From positions 1-58,229 of the forward strand of contig JAGBTH010000140.1 in NCBI GenBank assembly GCA_017631385.1: a DNA stretch of 58,229 bases, written 5' to 3'. Below, one piece after another: positions 1-55,469 of the stretch (position 1 is its first letter; each line of letters starts with the position of its first letter). The translations under genes were made by a program, and so were the position numbers. This DNA is from Kiritimatiellia bacterium. GTDB taxonomy: Bacteria; Verrucomicrobiota; Kiritimatiellia; RFP12; UBA1067. The notes below the pieces were generated by a model. The model made no database searches. It saw only the letters and a program-made list of their open reading frames with translations, and was not told the origin of the DNA.

Positions 1-91
1 AATAACCTGCCGATCCGGAAACCAAGCCGCTATGATCGCCAACCGGTATTAAGCGCTGACCTTTGACCTTATAGCGCAATGTTCTTCCCAC
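1..91 (-). CDS. 5' part of a small protein whose ORF runs off the left edge (about 106 aa if the window ends are joined)
   Basis: GGAGGT (99..104, minus) + 7 nt + GTG at 91. The frame MGRTLRYKVKGQRLIPVGDHSGLVSGSAGY stays open to position 1. It continues in frame into 58229..57995 if the shared terminal AATAA is overlapped. Confidence 0.4.
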   Translation of the reverse strand, partial: MGRTLRYKVKGQRLIPVGDHSGLVSGSAGY

Positions 92-114
92 TATGTATAC
101 CTCCGAATCTTAAT

Positions 115-202
115 TACTTTTTAAAAAATAACCCCCGGGGAAAAAATGAGGACCGCCGCGATTTGGGTAGGGGGTGCATTTTTCGTGACCCCCTCCCGTG
201 TC
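115..202 (-). other. GC-rich structured intergenic element at the arm-1/arm-2 boundary (terminator-like hairpin plus CCCCGGGG palindrome flanked by A/T runs)
   Basis: Minus strand reads GGGAGGGGGTCACGAAAAATGCACCCCCTACCC, an approximately 10-bp G/C stem. It is followed by TTTTTTCCCCGGGGGTTATTTTTT. This is a GC island in an otherwise AT-rich spacer. Confidence 0.4.
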
Positions 203-457
203 TCATTCCTCATCAGGGGTTTGTTTAGTTACTTTCTTGTACTTATTCAAGAAGTCGTATTTGATTATTTCATCAATAGCTCTTTCAATCTCTTCATCGC
301 ACTCCACTTGAGACATGTCGTCTTCAATGTTTGCGATTCTCATAAGAAGTGATGAACTATTGTGACCTTTTTCCATATCAAACTCATTCCAAAGGTCGAA
401 TTGTTCAAATGGATCAAAAGGATTGTCGAATGTTGTTAATGCACATTGCTTTGACAT
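203..457 (-). CDS. hypothetical acidic protein (84 aa)
   Basis: ORF abuts the upstream gene with a 3-nt gap and is co-oriented. No motif recognised. Confidence 0.55.
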   Translation of the reverse strand: MSKQCALTTFDNPFDPFEQFDLWNEFDMEKGHNSSSLLMRIANIEDDMSQVECDEEIERAIDEIIKYDFLNKYKKVTKQTPDEE

Positions 458-460
458 CTG

Positions 461-3235
461 TTAATTCGCTCCTTTCAAATAGTTGGATACAGTTGATGTA
501 GATACACCTAGGGCTTTAGCTATCTCCGTTAAGCTATAGTTAGAGTTACTCATAGCCTTAGCTTTAGCTATCTTAGCTGTACTAAGTGTAGTGGTAGCTT
601 TGGGGGTAGCTCTTGCTCTAAGGCTGTCCGCATCCGAGTATTTTAGTATCTTTTTAAGTGATTCTTCGCTAATAGCGCCTGCCTGTATTGCTTCCCACTC
701 TCTATCTGTTATAGTGATGGGGTTTCTTTTAGCTCCTACGGTATCGCGGTACTTGGTAAGAGCCTGTTGCTTAGCTTTCTTTATATCACCCTTTTTCATG
801 GTAGGATCTGAAGCAACTTTTTTATTAACATCAGAGGTGGCTAATAGCTGGGCCATTCTCTCACGTGGTGCGTTGAGCTCCGAATCATTAAGTTTGCTCA
901 TTAGATCATCTACTTCTTTCTTATAGATGGTCTTAGCAGAGGCCTTATATTCTATCTTACCTGCCCTCATCATTTCAACACGGGCCTGGTTAGCAAGGGA
1001 CTTCATTTTATTTGCATAGTCCGCGTAAGCTCTTTCCTGAGGGGTGTTAAAATCTGAAACGAGGGTGTAAGCATCATCAGTTTCGGCCATCTTCGTACTC
1101 TGCTGGTGTCTTTTCTTAGTAACAAGTGTTACCTCGCCGGTCTTTTTATTGACCTTTTTCTGCGTGTAGTATAAGTCATCAGCAGGGCTATATATTAGAG
1201 AACCTTCAGGTCTTGTCGGATCATACCAACTCTTACCCTCAATGTTTACTTTAGGCGAGCCTTGTCTCTTGTCGACCGACACCTGTGACTTGGCTCTAGA
1301 TATTAAGGTGGAAGCTCCACCAGAACCGTCGTCATCTTGGTGCTTCTGATATTTCTTTTTTAACGAAGCTATGTTGTTATCAATTTCACTTTGTTTATAG
1401 TCGAGCTTATGCTTCGCCGCGTCTATAACAACCATGCTATGACGAACGGCTGCTGCTAACTCGTCTGTTGAAGCACCCTTAAGGGTCATATCCGTAATAA
1501 GATTAGATATCTGTCCCATCTGAGACTGAGTGTTATCTTTTCCGGTTTTAGGATCCTTCATATATTTCATTCCGGGTCTTTCGGGATACTGCCCTTTTGG
1601 GTCGAAGCCTTCGAGACCTTTGAGTTTATCCGTAGAGGTTACTTTCACCTTTCCCGATTTGTCATGTGTGGGGATACACATAACGGTATCTCCGTCAAAG
1701 TCGGCACCGGATAATCTTTCAGCAACCTTAGCATTTATACATACGGCGTCGATCGGAGTTGTGCCGATTAACTTTTTACCCATAGGGTTTTTATTGTTTA
1801 CGGTACAAATAGGAATCTCAAACGTTCCACCATGAGGATATCTTACTAAGGCTAATTTAGTACCCTGCTCGTAACCGGGTGCATATATCTCGTTATCCTT
1901 TAATGTATTATTAGGGATAATAACATGATATTTCTGACCAGGAAGAGCGGCTGCTTGTAAGTGAGCGGCTGCTTTATCGCAATCCTCAGCAAACGAATTT
2001 AAGAAATGCTTTTTAACTGTTGGATTGTTAAGCGACATGATCTCATCATATTCTGCTGTTTTATCCACAACTGCTAAATTTAACTGTTTCTTAATCATCG
2101 GCATACTCTGCTTAGATAAGAACTGAGATGGTAATTTATCTTGCCACTCAGACCAGTCACCTTCTTCTGCTCTTTTATTAATAAGAGACAGTTGCTTATT
2201 ACCATCCTTATCGATGTAATAGCTTTGACCGTTTGCCTTAATGAGCGAGCCGAAGGGGTTGTCTGGATCGTTCTTTATATCTTTAAGAACATCCATCTTC
2301 GAGACGTTAGATTTCTTATTAGTGTTAAATATAACGTCGACGCCGTCGGGCATGTCGTCTGAATATACAGCCATACCCTTTATGTATTTAGTATCATCTA
2401 CTAATATACGAACCTGAGCGTAACGCTTACCTTCTCCTAAATATAAATCATCAACACCTCTTCTGATCTCGACAACGCCATCCTTATCGATACCGCCATC
2501 TTCTGCATACCTAATTTGAAGACGCTTAGAATCCATACTCTTAGGATATACAAATTTGTCAAACGATTCACCGCCGTCATGCGATGTATAGTCTTTTAAA
2601 GAATGAATATTATCGGGATTATATATCTCTTTATGCTCGGTGCCGGGAGGACACAGAACTTTAAGCGTTGTGTGTTTTCCAGCATTGGTAACCTGCTCGA
2701 TTCTTCCACCGTATACAGGATATCCTTCCAACTCCAGAATATTGAGCGCCTGGTTGAGTTTCTCCTTAGAAATATTAAGTTCTCTCTCAACGCCTGCTCC
2801 GACGTCAATCATACCTTTTTCTTTAACTCGTTCACGAAGAAAGTCGGCTGTCTCTTTCGCCTTGTTCATTCTTTCTTCCGATTTATCGTTAAACCAGGAT
2901 CTGACCGTCGATTCGTTAACGCCCATCTGTCTACCTATTTCGGTGTCATTAAGACCATCGGCTCTTAACGATTTCGCTCTAGCTACGTTTAAAGCTCTTC
3001 GCTCAGCTCTTGCCAAACCTTTTTCGGTTCGGTATTGAGTGGTGGTTAAACCAAACTCCTCTTTTATATTCTCAGGGGTCTCTTTCCAACCGGTCTTTTT
3101 TAATTCCTCAACACGAGACAGAAAGTCTCTAGATCTTTGATAAGGGTCTTCACCAGAACCCCAAGGATATCGACCAGAACGTTTAGGCATTCCGTAATGC
3201 ATTATCTCGTTCATTTCGTCCACAACGTGATTCAT
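461..3235 (-). CDS. putative single-subunit two-barrel RNA polymerase (YonO/RdRP-like) with N- and C-terminal HTH modules
   Basis: Motifs LALVRYPHGGTFEIPICTV, AERLSGADFDGDTVMCIPTHD, MGQISNLITDM and VVIDAAKHKLDY. Compare beta-prime RAPTLH...NADFDGDQMAVHVP and the RdRP DxDGD...AVDxxK signature. HTH-like LNDTEIGRQMGVNESTVRSWF and YSLTEIAKALGVSTSTVSNYLKG. RBS GAGGGGG upstream. Confidence 0.7.
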   Translation of the reverse strand: MNHVVDEMNEIMHYGMPKRSGRYPWGSGEDPYQRSRDFLSRVEELKKTGWKETPENIKEEFGLTTTQYRTEKGLARAERRALNVARAKSLRADGLNDTEIGRQMGVNESTVRSWFNDKSEERMNKAKETADFLRERVKEKGMIDVGAGVERELNISKEKLNQALNILELEGYPVYGGRIEQVTNAGKHTTLKVLCPPGTEHKEIYNPDNIHSLKDYTSHDGGESFDKFVYPKSMDSKRLQIRYAEDGGIDKDGVVEIRRGVDDLYLGEGKRYAQVRILVDDTKYIKGMAVYSDDMPDGVDVIFNTNKKSNVSKMDVLKDIKNDPDNPFGSLIKANGQSYYIDKDGNKQLSLINKRAEEGDWSEWQDKLPSQFLSKQSMPMIKKQLNLAVVDKTAEYDEIMSLNNPTVKKHFLNSFAEDCDKAAAHLQAAALPGQKYHVIIPNNTLKDNEIYAPGYEQGTKLALVRYPHGGTFEIPICTVNNKNPMGKKLIGTTPIDAVCINAKVAERLSGADFDGDTVMCIPTHDKSGKVKVTSTDKLKGLEGFDPKGQYPERPGMKYMKDPKTGKDNTQSQMGQISNLITDMTLKGASTDELAAAVRHSMVVIDAAKHKLDYKQSEIDNNIASLKKKYQKHQDDDGSGGASTLISRAKSQVSVDKRQGSPKVNIEGKSWYDPTRPEGSLIYSPADDLYYTQKKVNKKTGEVTLVTKKRHQQSTKMAETDDAYTLVSDFNTPQERAYADYANKMKSLANQARVEMMRAGKIEYKASAKTIYKKEVDDLMSKLNDSELNAPRERMAQLLATSDVNKKVASDPTMKKGDIKKAKQQALTKYRDTVGAKRNPITITDREWEAIQAGAISEESLKKILKYSDADSLRARATPKATTTLSTAKIAKAKAMSNSNYSLTEIAKALGVSTSTVSNYLKGAN

Positions 3236-3239
3236 GATG

Positions 3240-3800
3240 TTAAACCCCCTCGTAATCTATTTTGTCTAGCATTTTATCCAAATATACGATTCGATCCATG
3301 ACAGGTACGATCTCGTCTACAGTTGGATTGTGGTATAAAATTTTATCATTCTGATAGATTCTAAGTTCGATCTCTTTTAGATCAGAAGGTTTGATTTTAT
3401 ACTCCAAACAAAAAAGAGCAGTATATACTAATAGCTGCTCCATCTTGGCTGGTGTTTTACCAGTCTTTAAGTCATGTATTCTAAGTACACCATTTCTAAA
3501 AGAAATAGCGTCTGCTGTACCGAAGAATCTATCGGAATAATATAAGACGACTTCAGTGCTCATCTTAAATCCGATAGCGTCGTTTACATAAGCATACAGA
3601 GTCTTAGCCGACTTAGGCTGTTTGATACCCAAATCGATGGTGCTCTTAGCCCAAGCGTGAAGAATGGTTCCTCTTTCGGTGGCTTTCATTTCAGTATATG
3701 ATTGTACGACTTTATCGTCGTCATACCTCAGCCAGCTAGATTTACTTGCGCTAAACGGCGCGTGTAAGCCTTCGTATTGAGTATGTTTAATAAACTTCAT
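3240..3800 (-). CDS. PD-(D/E)XK family nuclease (RecB/Cas4-like fold, no Cys cluster)
   Basis: GTADAISF...LRIHDLKTGK (D...D-x-K) followed by QLLVYTALF (QxxxY). Confidence 0.65.
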   Translation of the reverse strand: MKFIKHTQYEGLHAPFSASKSSWLRYDDDKVVQSYTEMKATERGTILHAWAKSTIDLGIKQPKSAKTLYAYVNDAIGFKMSTEVVLYYSDRFFGTADAISFRNGVLRIHDLKTGKTPAKMEQLLVYTALFCLEYKIKPSDLKEIELRIYQNDKILYHNPTVDEIVPVMDRIVYLDKMLDKIDYEGV

Positions 3801-3812
3801 AAATATCTCCTT

Positions 3813-4115
3813 TTACTTAAATACTTTTTGAAGTTCTTTCAAAACCTCGTTTTTGTTCTCCGGATATATGAATCTAGAGAAAGACATTTTATTCAGTAGT
3901 TCAACATAGTCTTCTTGATTAGGCTGTCTCGCCGCGGTGGCATGTTTTTTACACTCTAAGATCGCCCACTTATTTTTAAACAAAATTAAAAGGTCAGGAA
4001 TTCCTTGAATATAACTAGAATCGAGTTTCATAATAAGACAACCCTTAAATAAGTTTGTTAACTCTTTTATGAGATTGTCCTGAAATCCGCTCTCTAGTCT
4101 AGAACTTCGAGCCAT
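3813..4115 (-). CDS. VRR-NUC domain nuclease
   Basis: GIPDLLILFKNKWAILECKK...QPNQEDYVELL matches the VRR-NUC PD..(D/E)xK core. It is the first gene behind the motif at 4194..4222. Confidence 0.7.
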   Translation of the reverse strand: MARSSRLESGFQDNLIKELTNLFKGCLIMKLDSSYIQGIPDLLILFKNKWAILECKKHATAARQPNQEDYVELLNKMSFSRFIYPENKNEVLKELQKVFK

Positions 4116-4233: not shown

Positions 4234-4276
4234 CAAAAAATAAAAGAGAGTGTAAGTATTACTCACACCCTCTCTC
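4234..4276 (-). terminator. rho-independent terminator
   Basis: Minus strand: GAGAGGGTGTGAG-loop-CTTACACTCTCTT followed by TTTATTTTTT. Confidence 0.65.
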
Positions 4277-4279
4277 GTT

Positions 4280-4711
4280 TTACTTTAGTGTTTTCGAAAT
4301 GATCTCGCCATCCACATTGAAATCCAACAATACGGATTTTTCGTACCCGTTCACAAATCTTGAAGCGCCTCCCTCGGAAAGTCCGAAGTCTACATAATTG
4401 TCGCCGTTAGGATTATTTTCTTCATAAATCCAACCAACCACTTGTCCGGCTTTTGAGCGGGGAATACCCAACATGTCATAGACCTCGTTTAAGAATATAT
4501 GACCCACCGACTTCAGTTTATCGTTTGCATATCGTTCCTGAAGTTTGATGAACGCCAAATTCATTTCGCTATTGTCATTCCACATCGGACTACTCTCGTC
4601 AAAAAACCGTGCGTATTGGCTGTATGTTTTTACACCCTTTGCCTCAACCTGTTTGACATCAACCTTTACCGGTTCGTCACTTTCAATTTTGATCGTGATA
4701 ATAGTTTCCAT
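4280..4711 (-). CDS. paralogue containing only the C-terminal domain of the 17845/20459/21496 family
   Basis: IFLNEVYDMLGIPRSKAGQVVGWIYE...VDFGL...VLLDFNVDGEII is closely similar to the C-terminus of the 320-aa protein at 17845..18807. Confidence 0.65.
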   Translation of the reverse strand: METIITIKIESDEPVKVDVKQVEAKGVKTYSQYARFFDESSPMWNDNSEMNLAFIKLQERYANDKLKSVGHIFLNEVYDMLGIPRSKAGQVVGWIYEENNPNGDNYVDFGLSEGGASRFVNGYEKSVLLDFNVDGEIISKTLK

Positions 4712-5010
4712 AATATGTTCTCCTTTAAATATGTGATAGTGACCTTTCGGTCCATAAAAGGAGATGCTGGTAACGCGACTAAAATTTTGCCTAAAATTCG
4801 TCTTTGGTCATTTGCCCACTTTTATTTCTATATTATATATTTTTAAAATTTTTATTTTCACATAAAATAGGGAGAAAAAGTGGGTTTTTGACCAGAACTC
4901 AAATTTTTCTTCAAAAACACCTCAAAATGGGTCCAAAACAGCCCAAAAACGCCCTTTTTTAGCCTTTTTCGACCATTTTTCACGATTTTTCTCTGCCCAC
5001 TTTTATTTTC

Positions 5011-5033
5011 AAAAGTGACCAAAAGCCCACTTT
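5011..5033. repeat. 23-nt direct repeat, copy 1 (AAAAGTGACCAAAAGCCCACTTT)
   Basis: Identical to 5085..5107. Confidence 0.9.
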
Positions 5034-5084
5034 TTTTGACCAAAAACGGTCACCCTTGATCGAAACGCACACAAATGGTCAAAT

Positions 5085-5107
5085 AAAAGTGACCAAAAGC
5101 CCACTTT
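5085..5107. repeat. 23-nt direct repeat, copy 2 (AAAAGTGACCAAAAGCCCACTTT)
   Basis: Identical to 5011..5033. A partial third copy, AAAAGTGACCAC, lies at 5115..5126. Confidence 0.9.
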
Positions 5108-5132
5108 CCAAATCAAAAGTGACCACAAATTT

Positions 5133-5612
5133 TTACTTCCCGAACATGTAAATATCCCGGTTTCCGAGCTTCGTAGCCTCCGCTTCAAGCCAGAAATCGT
5201 CGTACTTACCTAACCTGTCACCATAGCCACGACTCGTCATAAATATCCTGTACCAATATCTCAAAGCGCTAGCGATAGTGAAGAATACCATTACCGGACC
5301 GTACATAGCGTTCTGTATAGAATGACCGAGCTCGTGTCTTTTGGTCGCGCCATTCGCGCCTCTGTGAGTTATGATAAACATACCTAAGCACAACCCGCCC
5401 CAATTGCGTCCGATCTCGAAATGCCAGCAGCCAGCATACTTCCTCGGTCTTTTACCGATCAGTAACAAACCAAGTGCAGCGATGGCTCCGACAATATTCA
5501 TGAGAAGACCCCATGTGAGATTGAGAGTATAATATACTCTACGGTACTCACTCGGCTTCACTGGTCTCGCCTTCGTCAGCGCTGTCTTTATTTTCTGAAT
5601 CAGATTTCTCAT
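5133..5612 (-). CDS. membrane protein with HExxH zincin motif
   Basis: Two or three hydrophobic segments plus TKRHELGHSIQNAMYGP. GGAG lies upstream of the ATG at 5612. The start overlaps the upstream gene by 65 nt, so it is uncertain. Confidence 0.55.
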   Translation of the reverse strand: MRNLIQKIKTALTKARPVKPSEYRRVYYTLNLTWGLLMNIVGAIAALGLLLIGKRPRKYAGCWHFEIGRNWGGLCLGMFIITHRGANGATKRHELGHSIQNAMYGPVMVFFTIASALRYWYRIFMTSRGYGDRLGKYDDFWLEAEATKLGNRDIYMFGK

Positions 5613-8337: not shown

Positions 8338-8682
8338 TTATTCCTCCATTTCGGATTCTGTGATATATCTGTATCTGCGTCCTTTGTAGGGCTGACCGGT
8401 TCTACAAGCTTCATATATGCTAGACTCGTAAGCATCCACGGCGTGATCCGCGGCGCTCTTAGCGCTTATGAATATCTGGATAATATTGCCCTTCTCGTCG
8501 ATTAAAGCGACGTGCTTATGTTTCTTGATCGGCTTCACCTTATGGTCGTCGCGGTGATTAAAGCAAGTCCAAGAGCAGTACATTCTTTTACGACTGTCCG
8601 TATATACGTGCTCGGGAGTCGGATAGAATTCCTTGCCACACATCGGACAGAATCGAGTTACAAAATTTTTCTTACCTGGCAT
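8338..8682 (-). CDS. zinc-ribbon plus homing-endonuclease-type DNA-binding-domain protein (114 aa)
   Basis: CPMCGKEF...CSWTCF. The segment VALIDEKGNIIQIFISAKSAADHAVDAYESSIYEACRTGQPYKGRRYRY resembles NUMOD/IENR-type modules. Start trimmed to MPGKK, which has RBS AAGAGG. Confidence 0.55.
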   Translation of the reverse strand: MPGKKNFVTRFCPMCGKEFYPTPEHVYTDSRKRMYCSWTCFNHRDDHKVKPIKKHKHVALIDEKGNIIQIFISAKSAADHAVDAYESSIYEACRTGQPYKGRRYRYITESEMEE

Positions 8683-8687
8683 TTTTC

Positions 8688-8810
8688 TTAACCTCTTATT
8701 TGCATTATTAGAATATAAATGGCTAGGGCGAAACAGTAGAGCCCCGCTAAAATGACGGCGCCACCAGCTATCGCCATAACGCATGAGAATATGATGTCAA
8801 GTGTGGTCAT
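8688..8810 (-). CDS. 40-aa single-pass membrane peptide (not in the ORF track)
   Basis: GGAGGT directly upstream. Translation: MTTLDIIFSCVMAIAGGAVILAGLYCFALAIYILIMQIRG. ATGA overlap with the stop of 8807..9019. Confidence 0.45.
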   Translation of the reverse strand: MTTLDIIFSCVMAIAGGAVILAGLYCFALAIYILIMQIRG

Positions 8811-17844: not shown

Positions 17845-18807
17845 TTATTCTCCTTCGTAAATGCGGTCGATAATTACTCCATCAACGTTAAAGTCAAGCA
17901 GGATGCTTCTCTCACGTCCGTTTACAAAATCGCGTCTTCTAGCGTTATTGTAATATCCATCGTAAATGCCGAAATCTACAAAGCTATCGATCGTAGGATC
18001 TTTCGGATCATAGCGCCAGCCTACAACCTGACCAGCCTTAGACTTAGGGATGCCGAGCATTTCATATACCTCGTTCAAGAATAAATATCCCTCGCGCTCG
18101 AGTCTCTTGCTAGCCTCGGCCTGCTGCATCTTAAGGAACGTGAGATTATAGCCGGGATCTTTGGTCCAGCCAGCGCAATACTCGTCGAAGAACCTAGCGT
18201 AATCACTAACGTTTCTAGGATCAAGCTCGTTTACGGTGGTTTTAACCTTTTTTTCCTTGCCGTTTTCGTCTACGACAACTTCCTCGACCTCTTTCACCTT
18301 GATGTTGTGTCTGAGTTCGCGATCGATCTCCTTGCCGAATCGGTCGACGACACGACCTCTATATTCCTTGAAGCTCTTATCGATGGTTGCGTAAGCAGCG
18401 GCAGTAGCGATGTAACGCTTACGAAGGATGCCGTGAGATGTCAGCATGCAGCCAAGGGATGCCGCGCCGAGAATAACCGCGGGGCCATAAAGCTTGGCAA
18501 GCTTGACACCCGTATGTGCGTATGTGATAGTGAGATCCTTTTTGCTATCTTCCGCAGTATATTCTCTACCATCGGCGGTCGCACCTTTCTCGGTGGCAGT
18601 GTGGATCTCTTCGATGGTTTTCTTTGATTCGGATATAACATCCGTGACCTTCAGCGTTGCCTTACAAGCCAGAACGGCACTCGCCACAACACCAACGGTT
18701 CCGGCTACTGCGAGAATCTCGGGACTATGTTTCTTGAGCTGGAACCCGGTTTTGTAAAATGCTCTGCTCACACCTGAGATAATTTGTGCTTTAGTCATTT
18801 TTATCAT
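17845..18807 (-). CDS. paralogous TM-anchored protein, family member 1 (320 aa)
   Basis: N-terminus KKHSPEILAVAGTVGVVASAVLACKATLKV plus the C-terminal GIPKSKAGQVVGW domain. It resembles what I recall as a DUF6353-type family, which is unverified. Confidence 0.65.
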   Translation of the reverse strand: MIKMTKAQIISGVSRAFYKTGFQLKKHSPEILAVAGTVGVVASAVLACKATLKVTDVISESKKTIEEIHTATEKGATADGREYTAEDSKKDLTITYAHTGVKLAKLYGPAVILGAASLGCMLTSHGILRKRYIATAAAYATIDKSFKEYRGRVVDRFGKEIDRELRHNIKVKEVEEVVVDENGKEKKVKTTVNELDPRNVSDYARFFDEYCAGWTKDPGYNLTFLKMQQAEASKRLEREGYLFLNEVYEMLGIPKSKAGQVVGWRYDPKDPTIDSFVDFGIYDGYYNNARRRDFVNGRERSILLDFNVDGVIIDRIYEGE

Positions 18808-20458: not shown

Positions 20459-21229
20459 TCATTCGAAATGGTGCTTTGGCGGACGTACATAATCAAGCAC
20501 GATACAAGGTCTATCGTACTCGTCCTTACCCGGATTGTAGTCGATCTCGATGAGACCGTCGGCAAGATTCCAACCAATATAATCGCTGATATCGGTTTTC
20601 TCCAGACCGATCTCGTAATAGAAATCGGTTAAGGATATGGATCCGCTCATATCAAACATCATTTGTCGGTTGAGCTCATTTACAACCCTTTTGACCTTGT
20701 CGATATCATGCTTAAAATATCTTTTCGATACTGGATCGCAGAATAGTGTATCGCCTTTATCCGTGATATACACCTCATGCTTGCTTATCGGGTTTTCATC
20801 AAGCCTTTTCTGACTGACCTTTTCGCGAACCTCTCGTTCCTTTTTTTCACCGATCGTCTCGATGACTTTTTCTCGATATTCGGTAAGAGCAGTCTCCGAA
20901 ATCTTATAAGCGGTTGCTAGTGCTGCGTTTCTACGAAGATTCACGGATGTAGCGCCGAATATGCAACCACCCGAAACCACTCCGATTACGGCAGCCGGAA
21001 TATAACACCTCCAGCAGGTTTTGATGGTTTCTATCGGCGTTAACTCTTCCCTATCTTCCTCAAACTTACGATCGTCTATCAGCCGTAAAGCTTTTGGCGT
21101 AGCTTTTACTGCTAATACGGTCGAGGTGATCATACCAGCAACGCCAATACCGGTTAGGATTTCCGGACTGTGTTTGGATATCGACGACCCAACGCCTTTT
21201 ACAAGTTTCGTGAAATTTAACTTATTCAA
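20459..21229 (-). CDS. paralogous TM-anchored protein, family member 2 (256 aa)
   Basis: N-terminus SKHSPEILTGIGVAGMITSTVLAVKATPKA. TTG start behind AAAGGAG. Confidence 0.65.
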   Translation of the reverse strand: MNKLNFTKLVKGVGSSISKHSPEILTGIGVAGMITSTVLAVKATPKALRLIDDRKFEEDREELTPIETIKTCWRCYIPAAVIGVVSGGCIFGATSVNLRRNAALATAYKISETALTEYREKVIETIGEKKEREVREKVSQKRLDENPISKHEVYITDKGDTLFCDPVSKRYFKHDIDKVKRVVNELNRQMMFDMSGSISLTDFYYEIGLEKTDISDYIGWNLADGLIEIDYNPGKDEYDRPCIVLDYVRPPKHHFE

Positions 21230-21287: not shown

Positions 21288-21512
21288 TTATTTAGCAAGC
21301 TTATCGTCGATCATGCCTTCGACCAGTTTCAGTAGTTCTTGCTTATCTGCTTCTGCCTTCTGTACCTTAACCTTTTCGGCAATTATATTTCCGCCAAAAG
21401 TCATGATTATGCCAAGAACCGGTAATAACTTCTTAAGAAAATTAACCAACGCTATCGCCTCCTTTCCATAATATAAGTTGTCGCTTTCGCGGTCGTTAAT
21501 ATAAATACTCAA
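21288..21512 (-). CDS. 74-aa membrane protein
   Basis: Central hydrophobic helix LLPVLGIIMTFGGNII. Confidence 0.55.
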   Translation of the reverse strand: MSIYINDRESDNLYYGKEAIALVNFLKKLLPVLGIIMTFGGNIIAEKVKVQKAEADKQELLKLVEGMIDDKLAK

Positions 21513-22257
21513 TTATAGGGTCGTTGTCGATTATTACTATATAACCTTCCATACCGTCTGCAAATTTGACCTTTTCGTGTCTAAATTCAATGCTCGCATG
21601 ATTATAGAACTCCCGCATGGAATCTATAGACCATCCGACCTCGGCGCCATACTCAGTTCGAGCGAGACCAACCATGTCGTAGAAGTCGTTTAGACAAATA
21701 TAACCGCGGGTCTCGAAATCCGCATTAAATTGCCGTTCTACATTTAATAGATCTTCGATGGTTGATTCAAAGAATCGAAGAGAGTGATTATCAAAGAATA
21801 TAAGATTTTCTTTGGTTACAGAATTTTCGAAATCATCATATTCGTCTTTCATGATTTCTTTCCGAACTCGATCATCGGCGTCATCGCCATATAGTTCCTT
21901 GACTTTTTCTCTATATTTTTTAAACGATACATCCAAAAGCGCGTACGCGCTCATTAAAGAAGCTTGTCTGTGTTTATTCAATATATTTGCCCCAACTATA
22001 CAAGCCACCGTGGAAACACCGGTTATAACCGTCGGAATATATGCGGGACTAGCCGCAACAACGGTTTCTAGTTTCGTGAGTTTTTCGCCCTTATCGACCT
22101 CCGCCTCGACCACCAAGCAAATAGCTTTGGGTGTAGCTTTAGCCGCTAACACGGCAGTGGCAACCACGCCAATACCGCCTACGCAAGTTAATATAGTGGA
22201 TGCGTTTTTATGAAGAAACTTACCGGCTTCCGACCCAATCTTTTGTAAAAATGACAT
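21496..22257 (-). CDS. paralogous TM-anchored protein, family member 3 (253 aa)
   Basis: N-terminus NASTILTCVGGIGVVATAVLAAKATPKA and C-terminal ...YGAEVGW. Confidence 0.65.
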   Translation of the reverse strand: MSFLQKIGSEAGKFLHKNASTILTCVGGIGVVATAVLAAKATPKAICLVVEAEVDKGEKLTKLETVVAASPAYIPTVITGVSTVACIVGANILNKHRQASLMSAYALLDVSFKKYREKVKELYGDDADDRVRKEIMKDEYDDFENSVTKENLIFFDNHSLRFFESTIEDLLNVERQFNADFETRGYICLNDFYDMVGLARTEYGAEVGWSIDSMREFYNHASIEFRHEKVKFADGMEGYIVIIDNDPIIEYLY

Positions 22258-25895: not shown

Positions 25896-27536
25896 ATGTA
25901 TAGGGAATATCCAACATTTACACCAGAAGAAATACTAGAATATGACCGGAAGTCTAGGTTCGACGACCCACTTCTATCGGTCGAGGAGCAGCTCGCAAAG
26001 CACGAACAAATGCTGGACGAATACGCTAGACGCTATTTTGGAGGACCAGTACCGCCGGGCAATAAATATAAGGAGGTCGGTAGCGGAGAAACCCTCAAAT
26101 CAAGACCAGAAGTAAATAAGGTTTTACGACGTATCGAAAAGCCAGATATTAAAGGCGTATTAATCGTAGACGTACAACGTTTATCTCGCGGTAATCTCAA
26201 GGATGCTGGTAAACTTATTGAACTGTTTCAGTTTTCGAATACGTACGTAATCACGCCGTATAAAATATACGACATTCGCGACGAGTATGATCGTGACGCA
26301 TTCGAGCGAGAGCTGAAACGAGGTAACGAGTATCTCGAATATTTCAAGAAAATACAGATGCGCGGTAAATTAGCAAGTGTTAAGGAGGGTAATTATGTGG
26401 GATCCGTAGCCCCGTTCGGATTCGATCGTATTAAGAAAATGTATCCAGACGGCAAACGGCACTATTGGACTTTAACCGAAAAACCCGAAGAGGCGGTGAT
26501 CGTACGTACCGTATTTGACTGGTATTGTAACGACGGCGTGGGCGTATCAACTATATGTAGACGTTTGGAAAAGATGGGGGTCGCGGCCAAAAGCGGTAAA
26601 GTCAAATGGACCCCGGGAGCTATATACAATATGATAGAGAATGTGCATTATATCGGCTACGTAAGATGGAATTGGAGAAAGGTTATAAAAATAATAGAAG
26701 ATCAAGAAGTCAAAGTGTTGCGTCCGCACGCTAAGGACGGAGAATATTTGATATTCGAGGGCAAGCACGAGGGGTTAATATCCGAGGAATTATTCAAGAA
26801 AGCAAAACAAATTAGGGGTTCTAAACCTCGCAGCCACGTAGACAACTCGCTTAAAAATATACTAGCCGGCTTGGTTTATTGCAAATGCGGATATAGTCTC
26901 GTTCATAATACGTATGTACAAAACGGAGTAGAACTCGCAGCGCCCAAACTAAAATGCAGTAATCAGGTACATTGTAAAAGTGGATCGGTCGACTATAAAG
27001 AAATCGTAGATCGAGTGCGCGAATCCCTTCATGAGGCTATCGAGAATTTCGAAATAAGAGTAGTAAACGACCAAGCAGACTCGGCTAAACTTCATAAAAG
27101 TTTGATAAAGAGTCTCGAACGAAAGTTGGTAAAATTAAAAGAACAAGAGCTTCTGCAATGGAAAGCTCAGACTGATCCAGACCCAGCCAAACGAATGCCG
27201 GAGGAAATATTCAAAACTCTGAATGAGAATTTGCGTAAAGAGAAATCCGATCTCGAAGAAGCGCTGAGTGAGGCGTACGAGTCCTTACCGGAACCTATAG
27301 ATTACGAAGAGAAAATAGTTCAATTCACCGACGTATTAAATATTATGGACGATCCGAACGTGTCTGTTGAAGATAGAAATATGTATTTGAAGGATATAAT
27401 AGAGCGCATAGATTATAGACGTGACCCATATATTCAAGTCACCAGAGATAATTATGAGAAATTAGGCGCACCGAAACCGAAACGAGGTTTAACGTGGTTC
27501 GCCCCACCATTCGAGATCGAATTACACCTGAGATAA
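25896..27536 (+). CDS. large serine recombinase (integrase)
   Basis: N-terminal resolvase-type domain (YDRKSR...SVEEQ, VLIVDVQRLSRG), recombinase domain, Cys-rich zinc ribbon (CKCGYSL...LKCSNQVHC) and a C-terminal coiled coil. It is the only plus-strand gene. Confidence 0.9.
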   Translation: MYREYPTFTPEEILEYDRKSRFDDPLLSVEEQLAKHEQMLDEYARRYFGGPVPPGNKYKEVGSGETLKSRPEVNKVLRRIEKPDIKGVLIVDVQRLSRGNLKDAGKLIELFQFSNTYVITPYKIYDIRDEYDRDAFERELKRGNEYLEYFKKIQMRGKLASVKEGNYVGSVAPFGFDRIKKMYPDGKRHYWTLTEKPEEAVIVRTVFDWYCNDGVGVSTICRRLEKMGVAAKSGKVKWTPGAIYNMIENVHYIGYVRWNWRKVIKIIEDQEVKVLRPHAKDGEYLIFEGKHEGLISEELFKKAKQIRGSKPRSHVDNSLKNILAGLVYCKCGYSLVHNTYVQNGVELAAPKLKCSNQVHCKSGSVDYKEIVDRVRESLHEAIENFEIRVVNDQADSAKLHKSLIKSLERKLVKLKEQELLQWKAQTDPDPAKRMPEEIFKTLNENLRKEKSDLEEALSEAYESLPEPIDYEEKIVQFTDVLNIMDDPNVSVEDRNMYLKDIIERIDYRRDPYIQVTRDNYEKLGAPKPKRGLTWFAPPFEIELHLR

Positions 27537-49246: not shown

Positions 49247-49615
49247 TTACTTCTTAATAAACGCGGAAGCTACCTTTTTGCCGGCTTTAACCAGTTTGTT
49301 GCTGTTATCGTAAAGGGTGCACACCGTACCCATAACGGCAGCGGCGCCTATTACATAACCCCAACCCTTTTTCACAGCATTCGGATTTAGGCTCTTATAC
49401 TCTCTTTCGAGTCTGGTTCTCTCGTTAAGAGCCCTGATTTCAGCATTACTCATCTGCTTGAGGCTTTTACGTTTCGTCTCGGAAGCAGCTCTGGCCTCGG
49501 AGGACCAGTTTTCCGACTCGGCACGACGTTTGTTTCTGTCGGCTGTTTTTTGACGTCTTCTCACACCCCATCGCATTCCGGGTACGCCGTAATGGTAGAG
49601 TTCGTTGTTGTACAT
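49247..49615 (-). CDS. YHYGVPGMRWGVRR-tag protein, paralogue 3 (122 aa)
   Basis: MYNNELYHYGVPGMRWGVRRRQK, a basic region and a C-terminal hydrophobic GWGYVIGAAAVMGTVCTL. Confidence 0.65.
   Translation of the reverse strand: MYNNELYHYGVPGMRWGVRRRQKTADRNKRRAESENWSSEARAASETKRKSLKQMSNAEIRALNERTRLEREYKSLNPNAVKKGWGYVIGAAAVMGTVCTLYDNSNKLVKAGKKVASAFIKK
49574..49606. repeat. 33-nt repeat identical to 47408..47440
   Basis: Exact identity read directly from the sequence. Confidence 0.9.
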
Positions 49616-49630
49616 GACGTGTTTCCCTCC

Positions 49631-50713
49631 TTAAATATAGTGAATGGATTTCAGCTTATCGAAGCTCCAGTCGAACAGCATAAATCTCTTATGCGTTCCA
49701 ACATAGTCTTCTTTGTCCGACCATTCGTCTGTTTTATTCCCGGAAGAGAGTCTTCGGACCATTATTCCGTGAATATCGGTATCCGATTCACTATGAAGAT
49801 GGCCGGCATGAACCTCCCTAATATTCGCCTTTGCGAACTGCTCTGCAAAAGCCACCGGGAATATAGAGGCTAAATTGCGAGGTGTTGCTTGCTTGGAGTC
49901 TCCGTGGGTTATCATGATCGTGTTTTTGCCGTAGCTTATGCACTTTCTGAACTCCATAGAGTCGTCTACGATATCGGAACCGTAACGCTCGAGGAGAACC
50001 TGCGTAAACATCCACGATATACTCCTGTCATGATTACCGGGAGAATATAAAACTTTAACATTGTTGGCATGACTAATAGCCGTATCGATAATGGCATACA
50101 TAAACGTTTGCCCTTCCTTTACGGCTCTCTTCATATCAACTTTTTCGATAAGCGTACCTTTGGTGGTGTGCCCATTCACGATACTATCGTTATGGAAGAA
50201 ATCCTGGCCAAACGGGATAAATATAGTATCCCAATTCCGACTAGTTATAAGTTCTAGGATTGAATTGAGAACCGGCCGATAGTGATCAAGGAACGCCACA
50301 CCCCAATGCATGTCGAATAAGGGTATTTCCAACATGCCATGAGAATCGTTTCTCTCTACCGGAATGTAAGTATAAGGTTCGACTTTACCCTCGATAGCTT
50401 CTATGAATTTCTCAGGGTCTACATCGGTAGCCTTCTGTTTAATCCATGCTTGTACTATCTCGCCGTCGGCTGAGACTTGCACGGTTGCGTCGTGGGCTAT
50501 AAAGCCCTTATACGTTCCCGCGGCTAGGGTCTCGTCGTCTGGGTACCCCTTCTTTTCCCATCGCCTTATCATGGAGTCGAACCCGCTAAAAGCCGTGGGT
50601 TTATCGAAATGGTGTTTGAAGTACGAGTCGTAGATCTCCCTTGTGGTGAGACCCTTTTCTCGCAGTTCAACGCAACTTCGCTTAACCTCGATGGGTATTC
50701 TGTTTCTTATCAA
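49631..50713 (-). CDS. calcineurin-like metallophosphoesterase with N-terminal HTH-like segment
   Basis: DMHWG, GQDFFHND, PGNHDR, ITHGD and AGHLHSE. N-terminus VELREKGLTTREIYDSY. Confidence 0.75.
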   Translation of the reverse strand: MIRNRIPIEVKRSCVELREKGLTTREIYDSYFKHHFDKPTAFSGFDSMIRRWEKKGYPDDETLAAGTYKGFIAHDATVQVSADGEIVQAWIKQKATDVDPEKFIEAIEGKVEPYTYIPVERNDSHGMLEIPLFDMHWGVAFLDHYRPVLNSILELITSRNWDTIFIPFGQDFFHNDSIVNGHTTKGTLIEKVDMKRAVKEGQTFMYAIIDTAISHANNVKVLYSPGNHDRSISWMFTQVLLERYGSDIVDDSMEFRKCISYGKNTIMITHGDSKQATPRNLASIFPVAFAEQFAKANIREVHAGHLHSESDTDIHGIMVRRLSSGNKTDEWSDKEDYVGTHKRFMLFDWSFDKLKSIHYI

Positions 50714-53384: not shown

Positions 53385-55469
53385 CTATTCGACTTTGTAT
53401 GTTTCAGTGCAAACCACTATCTTTTTTCTCGTTCGATAAGCGTAGTAGGTTCTACCCGAGCCATTAAAATCGTCGACCTCGAACGGACCTCTCGTTAACG
53501 AGCTCTCCCATAGATTTTGCACTGGGTCATACAAATGCCAAATTTGGCTGTACTCAGCGCTTTCCATAAGAAACCAAAGATACACCGACTCGGAGTTCGA
53601 CAGGGTATGCTGCGTTTCATTGCCGATTGATTCTGCCTTAATTATCGTGTTCGTGGTCGACGTCGATTGAGGGGGAGTATTAGTGTCTTCGGTTCCATAA
53701 AATATATAATTACCGGTTGTCGGGGTGGTTGCGCCACTATCGCCACTATCGCCACTATCGCCACTATCGCCACTATCGCCACTATCGCCACTATCGCCAC
53801 TATCATCAGCATCAACGATGCGATACTCAACGCTACGATCAGTTATGTAATGGTATCCTCTATATGCGAAGTATGAGATTTCCAAACCAGTTCCTGTTAT
53901 AAACGACTGAACGGGGATGGCATCTGATGTAATAGTAGGAACCCAAGACGAATCGACCTTATACTCAATTTGTTTCTTACCGGCATTCCAAGGCAGTAAG
54001 AACCAAATATATTCGGCTGAGGAGTATACGCTCGTAATCGTGTCGGTACCAATTTGTTTTACGCCCATTGTATCAGCCGACGTAGGGGGATTCTCGCCGT
54101 TTGACATTGCTATATAATTGTATTCATGAAACCAAAAATGGGCACTGCCCGATCGCGTATTCGTACCGTCACTCAACTGGCAGGTTATCGTGTTATAGCC
54201 GTCGGTGAATCTTGGCTTGTTTGTTAGCGTAATTGACTCGCCGCTTTTTATATTAGTACCTGAGGCGGTATATAAGGTTGCGCCATCGCATGTAATAATG
54301 ATCGAGGTGACAGGCAAAGTGCCTTCGTCGAATACGGGGGTCACCGTAGAAACTTCTTTTACCGTGCCCTTCTCGAATTCTCCAGAGGCAGGATCAGTAT
54401 AAATTTCGGGAAAACCAAACGGCTCATAATAGGTAAGCATCTTGCCTAATACCTCTGGCATTGATTTTCCAGAAAGGTCTTCACCTTGTACTATGCCGCC
54501 GAACGCGGTCATGGCCGTTAACGGTTTATTGTTTGCATCCTTTTCGGGTAAATAAATGTCCGCTTTCGTTGCGAACTTCGTGTTCACATAGAACTTGTTA
54601 ACGCAAGCTTGCTGGCTATATACGTTAACGGTTTGACCCATTTCGTTTACCGTGGTGTCATCGTTAACGTTGCATCTTATCTCGCCGTTTGCTTTTCTTA
54701 GGGGGATGGTATCGGATTTCGATGTGAAATTTAGATCCACATAAGAATATTGAAGCTTGCTTTGTAAGGTTGCGAGGTTCACAGCGTCTGCTGAGTCTCT
54801 CGGTGTACCGGTTCTTACATTACCATCCATCGTTCTAACAACAATCGAGCCGAGTCGAGGGTGATAGGTAAGTCCCGTGTCTTGTGTGCCGCATTCGATA
54901 TAATGCTTTCCTAGTTCTACGTTGAGCGAAGTCCATCCCTTTGCTTCTTTTAAGTCGTGAAGTGTGCTGTATCCACGGGGATCGAATACCTTCGAAGCAT
55001 TAAAGTCAATATAGTAGTATGGGTTTATACCAGCATTATTCGCTTCCTCTACATATACCCTGCTTCGGTTTTCGGTTAGAGTGTTGAAAAGAACCTCATT
55101 AAAAACCGGATTGTTTTCATTTGCTTCTTTTTTTGCGGCGTCCACTTCGGACATGTCCGGTGCGTAATCATCGTGACTATGATCTTTAGGTGCGTAATCA
55201 TCGTGACCATGATCTTTAGGTGCGTAATCACCTTCGCTAAAGTTCTTTTCTACCCAGCCAACCACATGTTCGTCGACTACCGAGTCGTCATAAATATAAA
55301 ACTTTCCGTCGGCTTGACAATAACATAAAGAGCCGCCTACGATAGATGATTTTAACGCGTTTCTAGCTTCTATCGTACTAACTACGAAATAACCGCCTTT
55401 TACATCGGTGCCTTCACACAAAAAGCCGTCGGCGGTATTCGTTAAGGGCATTTTTGTATTAACTGCCAT
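53385..55469 (-). CDS. fibre/adhesin-like protein with HxH repeats and a (DSG)n linker
   Basis: YAPKDHGHDDYAPKDHSHDDYAP, a (DSG)8 linker, and two copies of a C-terminal ...Y.WF...YYAYRT... domain. Confidence 0.7.
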   Translation of the reverse strand: MAVNTKMPLTNTADGFLCEGTDVKGGYFVVSTIEARNALKSSIVGGSLCYCQADGKFYIYDDSVVDEHVVGWVEKNFSEGDYAPKDHGHDDYAPKDHSHDDYAPDMSEVDAAKKEANENNPVFNEVLFNTLTENRSRVYVEEANNAGINPYYYIDFNASKVFDPRGYSTLHDLKEAKGWTSLNVELGKHYIECGTQDTGLTYHPRLGSIVVRTMDGNVRTGTPRDSADAVNLATLQSKLQYSYVDLNFTSKSDTIPLRKANGEIRCNVNDDTTVNEMGQTVNVYSQQACVNKFYVNTKFATKADIYLPEKDANNKPLTAMTAFGGIVQGEDLSGKSMPEVLGKMLTYYEPFGFPEIYTDPASGEFEKGTVKEVSTVTPVFDEGTLPVTSIIITCDGATLYTASGTNIKSGESITLTNKPRFTDGYNTITCQLSDGTNTRSGSAHFWFHEYNYIAMSNGENPPTSADTMGVKQIGTDTITSVYSSAEYIWFLLPWNAGKKQIEYKVDSSWVPTITSDAIPVQSFITGTGLEISYFAYRGYHYITDRSVEYRIVDADDSGDSGDSGDSGDSGDSGDSGDSGATTPTTGNYIFYGTEDTNTPPQSTSTTNTIIKAESIGNETQHTLSNSESVYLWFLMESAEYSQIWHLYDPVQNLWESSLTRGPFEVDDFNGSGRTYYAYRTRKKIVVCTETYKVE
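53733..53804. repeat. perfect 9-nt tandem repeat (GCCACTATC) x8, in frame, encoding (DSG)8
   Basis: 72 nt counted directly in the sequence. Confidence 0.9.
55159..55230. repeat. 30-nt tandem repeat, 2.4 copies
   Basis: GGTGCGTAATCATCGTGAC(T/C)ATGATCTTTA, which encodes KDH(G/S)HDDYAP. Confidence 0.85.

Follow-up and report, generated by a model that had tools for sequence, protein, structure and literature searches.

We analysed a window of 58,229 bases, which is a whole contig, binned with a 2.0-Mb metagenome-assembled genome, and which belongs to a phage. Its longest non-coding stretch, a gap of 421 nt at 4712-5132, carries an array of repeated words, and from comparison of sequences we read this gap, with moderate confidence, as a cis-regulatory hub, in which a promoter would be gated by a multi-site protein-DNA complex (a gated promoter or operator field). 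This reading is ranked first and a replication origin, held more tentatively, second, and the two are not mutually exclusive. What is new here is that the A/T tract inside the gap holds what is predicted to be a promoter, conserved in 32 distinct relatives, with the repeated word 14-15 nt upstream and an inverted word 12-16 nt downstream. A first-pass annotation of the window had suggested either a multi-operator site or a replication origin; the comparative evidence fits the former better, and the latter is weakened. The operator reading is preferred because of the positionally conserved, clamped -35/-10 promoter, the covariation of ribbon-helix-helix (RHH) proteins with the array in some relatives, and the XRE-type gene that follows many of the arrays.

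Sites, clamp and predicted promoter

The gap is far longer than the next non-coding stretches (202, 170 and 164 nt), and most of what the first-pass annotation had described in it was found as reported. The perfect 23-nt repeat AAAAGTGACCAAAAGCCCACTTT is present in two copies at the positions given, with no further match in the window at up to three mismatches (0 expected), and the partial third copy is also there; the segments 5099-5128 and 4995-5024 are 80% identical. GCCCACT stands at 4814, 4995, 5025 and 5099, and its inverse AAGTGGG at 4878/4879. TGACC/GGTCA pentamers, those of TGACCAAAAACGGTCA included, number 9 in the gap where 0.64 would be expected from their frequency in the window. 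Both types of word belong to one family, AAAGTG being common to AAAGTGACC and to AAAGTGGGC, which is the reverse complement of GCCCACTTT. The joint word AAAGTGRSC is found seven times within 310 nt (4814-5124) and once elsewhere in the 58,229 bases; 100 shuffles gave a mean of 1.42 and a maximum of 5, and none of them attained the observed clustering.

The 23-mer is a 22-bp quasi-palindrome, AAAGTGACC-AAAA-GCCCACTTT, with hexamer cores 10 bp or one helical turn apart, as in sites to which dimeric proteins bind. The starts of the cores GCCCAC (4995) and GTGACC (5015) are separated by 20 bp and so lie on the same helical face. On the gene strand, reading from 5132, three word pairs come first (5124-4995), together with the inverted pair at 5052-5037. 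Nine short A/T tracts follow, and their phasing predicts intrinsically bent DNA between these upstream sites and a clamp, made of two inverted words that stand 52 nt apart around the least stable 50 bp of the window (Table 1).

The A/T tract at 4824-4865 had been called pure; it is AT-rich, but four C's lie inside it, and the pure run is 30 nt long (4829-4858). This is the sole pure A/T run of at least 20 nt in the window and it falls within the least stable 50 bp, where the -35/-10 type promoter is predicted. The downstream arm of the clamp begins 12 nt past the -10 and should therefore overlap the transcript start. The gap closes on the gene strand with AAGGAG and then the ATG at 4711, preceded by a second promoter-like motif of the family. 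This motif, CGCG-N17-TATG(A/G)A, has seven gene-strand copies (25209-25183, 24757-24731, 22544-22518, 21491-21465, 9774-9748, 4777-4751 and 4222-4194), all in the early/replication arm and none in the virion half, and a looser model would probably find more.

These elements suggest how such a hub might work. The words would be bound by a phage protein with sequence specificity; as the half-sites are 10 bp apart, this protein is probably a dimer. The field upstream offers at least six copies of a 9-10 bp word, (A)AAAGTG(G/A)(G/C)C, two quasi-palindromes included, and the bent spacer of ~90 bp would let this field touch the clamp. Occupation of the clamp, with one site ~14 nt upstream of the -35 and the other over the transcript start, would then control open-complex formation at a core promoter that appears to face the next gene and, further on, the VRR-NUC, Cas4 and RNA-polymerase genes. 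In this way the hub may set when the downstream cassette is expressed, and possibly the polymerase operon as well.

Table 1. Features of the array, its neighbouring genes and the integrase, in window coordinates.
Feature	Position	Strand	Remarks
Membrane-like protein, 159 aa	5133-5612	minus	upstream of the array
Partial third repeat copy AAAAGTGACCAC	5115..5126		contains half-site AAAGTGACC
23-nt repeat, copy 2	5085..5107		quasi-palindromic site
Inverted pair TGACCAAAAACGGTCA	5037..5052		degenerate TGGCCA-type half-sites
23-nt repeat, copy 1	5011..5033		quasi-palindromic site
Word GCCCACTTT	4995..5003		everted partner of 5012-5020
Nine A/T tracts of 4-6 nt	4905..4992		spacing 9-11 bp; four A-, four T- and one A-tract on the gene strand
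Upstream clamp arm GGTCAAAAACCCACTTT	4877..4895		as read on the gene strand; inverted partner of 4806-4823
Predicted -35/-10 type promoter	4832..4861	minus	GTGAAA-18-TATAAT, or overlapping ATGTGA-18-TATATA; aimed at 4711
Least stable 50 bp in the window	4820..4869		-47.1 kcal/mol against a mean of -67.0 (standard deviation 4.5), ~4.4 standard deviations above the mean
Downstream clamp arm AAAAGTGGGCAAATGACC	4806..4823		as read on the gene strand; begins 12 nt past the -10
Second promoter-like motif CGCG-N17-TATGGA	4751..4777	minus	39 nt ahead of the ATG at 4711
Soluble paralogue of the C-terminal domain of DUF6353/phrog_2152 proteins, 143 aa	4280..4711	minus	first gene past the array
Intrinsic-terminator-like hairpin	4242..4276	minus	16-pair stem and T run; closes a one-gene cassette
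Motif TTCGCG-N17-TATGAA	4194..4222	minus	ahead of the VRR-NUC, Cas4 and RNA-polymerase genes
Conserved right-end genes	461..4115	minus	after the array in every relative
VRR-NUC-like protein	3813-4115	minus
Cas4/RecB-like exonuclease	3240-3800	minus
Two-barrel RNA polymerase with helix-turn-helix modules	461-3235	minus
Serine integrase	25,896-27,536	plus

Conservation in close relatives and across the supercluster

The first-pass annotation had asked for the repeats to be looked for in related phages, and there they are strongly conserved. We collected 80 related loci anchored on the polymerase (61-70% identity in that protein), and most of them have the same word, in 4-9 copies within ~400 nt, at a distance of 1-2.5 kb upstream from the polymerase gene. 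The genes on either side of the window's array are not conserved in these loci. Nearly all relatives have the array, which occurs in phages of seven host genera, and in each of four complete genomes examined it is the sole non-coding iteron array. One relative, 96% complete and possessing the replicase, has no array. A false repeat-array signal was noted in G005, the genome of locus L010, where a 232-aa protein (49,270-49,968) contains ~20 hexapeptide repeats NA(W/R/Q)V(C/S)(G/D).

The promoter-proximal module was aligned in 32 distinct sequences, that of the cultured phage FP_oengus included. It starts with a word doublet, GCCCACTT(T/G)CCCACTTTT, followed after 14-15 nt by TTG(C/T)GA, and this was found in all 32 modules. 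The distance from there to TATATA is 17 nt in 26 of the modules, 16 nt in five and 18 nt in one; after another 12-16 nt comes the inverted word AAAGTGGGC, often as part of the longer AAAGTGGGC-WTT-TGGCCAC. In the divergent members (the window, FP_oengus and loci L071, L024 and L055) the spacer sequence varies and the hexamers and distances are kept. This is a promoter-like way of evolving, and a mere unwinding element would not need it. Two features expected of an operator-promoter were found, namely a conserved -35/-10 pair at fixed spacing and directed at a gene, and sites at fixed positions that flank or overlap the core promoter.

The module promoter is always co-directed with the genes, and a leader and a ribosome-binding site stand behind it. 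The first gene after it varies, encoding an XRE-type helix-turn-helix (HTH) protein in many relatives, a membrane protein or lipoprotein in others and the DUF6353 fragment in the window, and in L024 and L055 the promoter leads straight to the VRR-NUC gene. Two other elements occur in relatives and are absent from the window. One is a palindrome, CATTTTCTGAAAATG, which one subgroup has within its arrays (at L022:3740-3760, and correspondingly in L027, L048, L054, L056, L077 and L081) and which resembles the CodY box, AATTTTCWGAAAATT. The other is a second conserved word, GTACGGAC(G/A)A, often present once or twice per array in both orientations (e.g. L022:3650-3665, L055:4800-4815 and L081:3750-3765), which resembles the iterons TTGTCGGACA and GCCGTACA of the RHH type described below.

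The conservation of the words also bears on whether the gap could act as a structured non-coding RNA or a small protein gene instead of a DNA-level element, which we consider very improbable. The 421 nt do fold far better than shuffles (z = -5.4), but the inverted words themselves account for this signal. Taken alone, the 5' leader does not stand out (z = -2.0), and inverted copies have A/T spacers within their sites that do not complement each other. Moreover, in L055 the GGGC of the word is changed to GGCC in all copies together (AAAGTGGCCA, five copies) on either strand, a concerted change that is predicted by co-evolution with a binding protein. A search of Rfam 15 gave no match at gathering score, with two chance-level matches at E 0.3-1. 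As to a small gene, the 61-aa open reading frame (ORF) at 4858-5043 (minus strand, TTG start) had been dismissed as an artefact, rightly in our view, given that it has no homologue in ~160 related loci in which the DNA words are kept. A 59-aa ORF at 5009-5188 has no homologue among them either.

A few close relatives are without the word and keep the plan, in which three upstream iterons, T-tracts in phase and an AT-rich core are followed by one downstream copy. We found six loci with such other iterons, and in all six (6/6) the gene directly upstream of the array encodes an RHH protein of 60-79 aa (phrog_876, 'transcriptional repressor'), and the one directly downstream is an XRE HTH gene. 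The DNA-reading β-strand of the RHH protein goes with the iteron: ISVRV with TTGTCGGACA (L002 and L005), VTVRV with TTGTAAGACA (L004 and L007), CGLRM with TGTACGTACA (L006) and VEIRI with GCCGTACA (L008). The recognition helix of the XRE protein does not track the iteron, as ISPAS(I/V)TKY is common to L005 and L004/L007 despite their different iterons, and L002 has the iteron of L005 with another helix. The RHH protein is the only direct protein link to any version of the array, and this is supportive of the operator reading in that it points to a repressor family. A wider search of viral contigs found no additional RHH loci.

Arrays of this kind can be followed well beyond these relatives. 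The far end of the window encodes a 924-aa protein with a full-length match to PHROG 4291, a family described as putative RNA polymerases of the two-barrel kind, with an HTH domain at either end, and as the signature of a supercluster that comprises Faecalibacterium phage FP_oengus, Lactococcus phage 1706 and the actinophage clusters BI, AM, AU, AW, DJ, CC and EL (bioRxiv 10.1101/842583). This membership was confirmed by tblastn, and the replicase is present in all phages of the same set. A PDB sequence search with the polymerase gave no match.

An equivalent array in a syntenic position, upstream of the VRR-NUC, Cas4 and RNA-polymerase genes, is present in Faecalibacterium, Lactococcus, Arthrobacter, Streptomyces, Gordonia, Rhodococcus and Microbacterium phages. 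Lactococcus phage 1706 has six copies of ACTTCGGGA and three of CTATCACGAAAAAAC, with 41-nt inverted arms around an AT-rich core, and there the array abuts the polymerase gene. Arthrobacter phage BenitoAntonio has the word of the window, with five of its eight matches in 200 nt, and shares the block TTTTATGTGAAA with the core of the window. Streptomyces phage Soshi shares this word; as GCCACTT it has eight of its eleven matches in 350 nt, with a doublet and an inverted copy on the two sides of a 77-nt AT-rich core. Gordonia phage Tanis and Rhodococcus phage ReqiPoco6 have tight palindromic sites of the TTAATAC type in an operator-like arrangement, and Microbacterium phage Count has eight copies of GCCATAAT and four of GGCCAAATCTG. 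The linkage of array and polymerase gene is kept even where other neighbours change. From these comparisons the array appears to characterise the supercluster, whether its members are lytic or temperate, and its constant neighbour is the polymerase gene. Gene 95 of BenitoAntonio (L180:3800-3937), annotated as a 45-aa hypothetical gene, lies inside the word array and is probably not a gene.

Replication origin, other functions and the search for a reader

The replication origin is the chief rival, and we regard it as possible, though less probable than the gated promoter. The words would then be initiator iterons, and the clamped AT core an unwinding element on which an SF3 helicase, an AEP primase and PolB are loaded, with the embedded promoter activating or priming initiation. 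The layout is the classical one: words are repeated in either orientation, A/T tracts are in phase, and the least stable 50 bp stand between inverted words. The array is unique in each of the four complete genomes, it lies in the replication arm of both lytic and temperate members, and its word specificity changes fast, as in lambdoid ori/O pairs; moreover, the replicase is universal in the same phages and has no known origin (PMC12205980). At least three clustered words and an adjacent, easily melted AT segment are thus present, as in iteron origins, but an initiator that covaries with the iterons was not found, neither in the replicase nor in the proteins encoded next to it. The one family that does covary is that of the RHH repressors, which are not initiators. 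Also, the AT core is conserved as a -35/-10 pair in both sequence and spacing, for which an unwinding element has no need, and the relative that has the replicase and lacks the array speaks against an essential origin. The first-pass annotation would have given up the origin if skew were flat at the array and the repeats were not conserved. Neither a step nor a sign change in GC or AT skew occurs there and the strand bias of the primase motif CCAAC is equal on both sides, which is weak evidence as all genes are co-oriented; the repeats are strongly conserved. With one half of this combination found, the origin is weakened. In the literature we found nothing relevant on an origin or a transcription map for phage 1706, ReqiPoco6 or the actinophage relatives.

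Several observations weigh against the gated promoter that we prefer. Textbook origins are laid out in the same way, with an AT core of least stability between inverted words, and bent DNA. The AT-rich core is kept in the Arthrobacter and Streptomyces phages, and as the locus of the Streptomyces phage is 57% G+C, a melting function explains this at least as well as a host-type promoter does, which favours the origin. In the window, the terminator-like hairpin at 4276-4242 separates the promoter from the polymerase operon. The RHH covariation comprises six loci and four states, and close kinship inflates these counts. Finally, no homologue of the RHH, XRE or p67 proteins of relatives was found in this phage, and the only Pfam HTH modules in the window are within the RNA polymerase.

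A combination of the two functions is also conceivable, although we consider it unlikely. A core protein that binds the word, conserved from Actinobacteria to Firmicutes phages, would open the core, and the phage polymerase would start there, as is suggested by the two-block geometry that the core shares with the TTCGCG-N17-TATGAA motif. The transcript would switch on the polymerase/late unit and also prime or activate the loading of helicase, primase and polymerase. If true, this would make the array a single coordinating point of transcription and replication for the whole supercluster.

In plasmids, RHH proteins on iterons that flank promoters typically belong to cassettes for partition and copy control (ParR/parC of R1, omega of pSM19035). 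The RHH genes adjacent to the arrays of relatives could for this reason be taken to mean that the array loads proteins in some other role, for example as an attachment site, as a centromere-like site of partition, or as a site recognised in packaging or by a terminase. We consider this improbable, since the genes searched included none of the ParA, ParM or TubZ type, lytic actinophages have the array as well, the genome end is ~4.7 kb away, and the integrase and a candidate attP are located at 25.9-27.6 kb.

No protein of the window could be assigned as the reader of the word. A hidden Markov model search of all six-frame ORFs found no RHH protein in the window, and the only weak matches were RHH-MazG fusions in three relatives. 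In these (L081:2373-2918, L101:18451-18957 and L102:19715-20260) a MazG-like pyrophosphohydrolase has an N-terminal RHH module (MTDNKKRGRPK...YRIRLTDDE), and other relatives have the MazG domain alone. The HTHs of the RNA polymerase were rejected, as their recognition helices are essentially invariant across the six iteron types and in 1706, Tanis and ReqiPoco6, which have other words; more likely they read something universal.

The first-pass annotation had named the N-terminus of the replicase and a zinc-ribbon protein as possible binders, and neither holds up. The replicase shows no covariation with the word, and no 60-residue segment of it is more alike in phages with the same word, among close relatives or across phyla; for residues 61-120, BenitoAntonio scores 46% with ReqiPoco6 and 39% with Tanis, which have different words, against 36% with Soshi and 35% with the window, which have the same word. 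The zinc-ribbon protein (8338-8784) has one homologue among the ~160 related loci, at a locus without an AAAGTGRSC cluster. The two replicase-adjacent proteins, the helicase, Cas4 and the last gene do not covary with the word. VRR-NUC shows a slight trend, BenitoAntonio being nearer to the phages with the same word, which over ~95 residues is not robust. Accessory proteins were rejected from the presence and absence of all window ORFs over the ~160 loci, none of which tracks the word. The 143-aa product found no support as a DNA binder, its AlphaFold model being of moderate confidence, with a pLDDT (predicted local distance difference test) of 74, and having no PDB fold match at E <= 0.001.

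Two readers of host type were likewise considered and rejected. The word is not enriched in the host bin, with eight copies of AAAGTGGGC in the 1.96 Mb outside the phage, which speaks against a host transcription factor site. It agrees with the DnaA box, TTATCCACA, at 6/9 positions only, which does not make the array a cluster of DnaA boxes. The lack of enrichment in the host bin together with the conservation across phyla argues for a reader encoded by the phages.

Genome setting, known systems and significance

Nearly all genes of this phage are on the minus strand. The virion genes occupy 58-28 kb, the early and replication arm follows, and the polymerase is at the far end. Many independent relatives have contigs that end 300-460 nt past the polymerase gene, as does the window (1-460), and a 3' cos overhang is annotated for ReqiPoco6 at that end. 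This is consistent with a genome whose physical terminus is fixed, and the window is probably a complete genome. In the virion arm, a repeat scan showed a dense repeat of words such as GATAGTGGCGA at ~53,730-54,230, inside the ORF 53385-55469, which is probably a repetitive protein segment.

Two homologues of the polymerase, orf75 of 1706 (L179:6956-10045) and gp106 of ReqiPoco6 (L183:3498-6218), are annotated as structural proteins. This suggests that the polymerase is packaged in virions, and it would then be a late product that acts early as an injected enzyme. A late polymerase carried in virions would fit a timed promoter in front of its gene.

Of the genes next to the array, the 159-aa product has hydrophobic segments and a HELGH (HExxH-like) motif, with one homologue among the ~160 related loci. 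DUF6353/phrog_2152 has four paralogues in the window (4280-4711, 17845-18807, 20459-21229 and 21496-22257). Three of the copies have an N-terminal membrane helix, and the one adjacent to the array corresponds to the C-terminal part only, is soluble, and has a promoter motif and a terminator to itself.

The array can be compared with several known systems. The operator-promoters of RHH proteins (ParR/parC of R1, omega of pSM19035, Mnt/Arc of P22 immI) also have short direct and inverted sites on both sides of the -35/-10, and the likeness extends to close relatives of this phage, where the sites covary with the adjacent RHH protein. However, no RHH protein is detectable in this phage, be it close to the array or further away, no partner genes for partition or immunity were seen, and the word AAAGTGGGC is common across host phyla, which would imply a different, conserved binder. 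The origins made of iterons and an unwinding element (lambda ori, and P4 ori/crr and SaPI ori, read by SF3 Rep helicases) are alike in dyad words, A-tract bending and melt-prone DNA between inverted sites, in being present once per genome, and in a word specificity that shifts between relatives. In those systems the iterons covary with an initiator domain, whereas here no part of the replicase does so; here, too, promoter hexamers stand at fixed spacing in the AT core and one relative is without an array.

Promoters of late genes that depend on an activator (the Alt sites of TP901-1, the p4 sites of phi29) similarly have an array of repeats and bent DNA upstream of a temporally regulated promoter near the junction with virion genes, but the additional site found here over the transcript start is more like repression. 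The primary origin of T7 is alike in that the phage has its own RNA polymerase, with promoter-like elements beside an AT-rich melting region near the polymerase gene. In contrast, T7 has no field of iterons and a polymerase of another family, and in our phage the element is upstream, not downstream, of the polymerase gene.

For annotation, a caution follows from this work: arrays of this kind should not be labelled "ori" by their appearance, and small ORFs within them, such as gene 95 of BenitoAntonio, are probably spurious. The supercluster unites Oengus-like gut phages, Lactococcus phage 1706 and several hundred actinophages by an unusual single-chain RNA polymerase and a four-in-one replicase, and the array is the only large non-coding element kept at one place in these genomes. 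The 9-bp word shared across phyla, and its replacement in a few relatives by iterons specific to an RHH protein, are open to experiment in the cultured Arthrobacter, Lactococcus and Faecalibacterium systems. Because it stands directly upstream of the polymerase genes, the array is the first target for asking how expression is timed, or where replication starts, in this family of phages.

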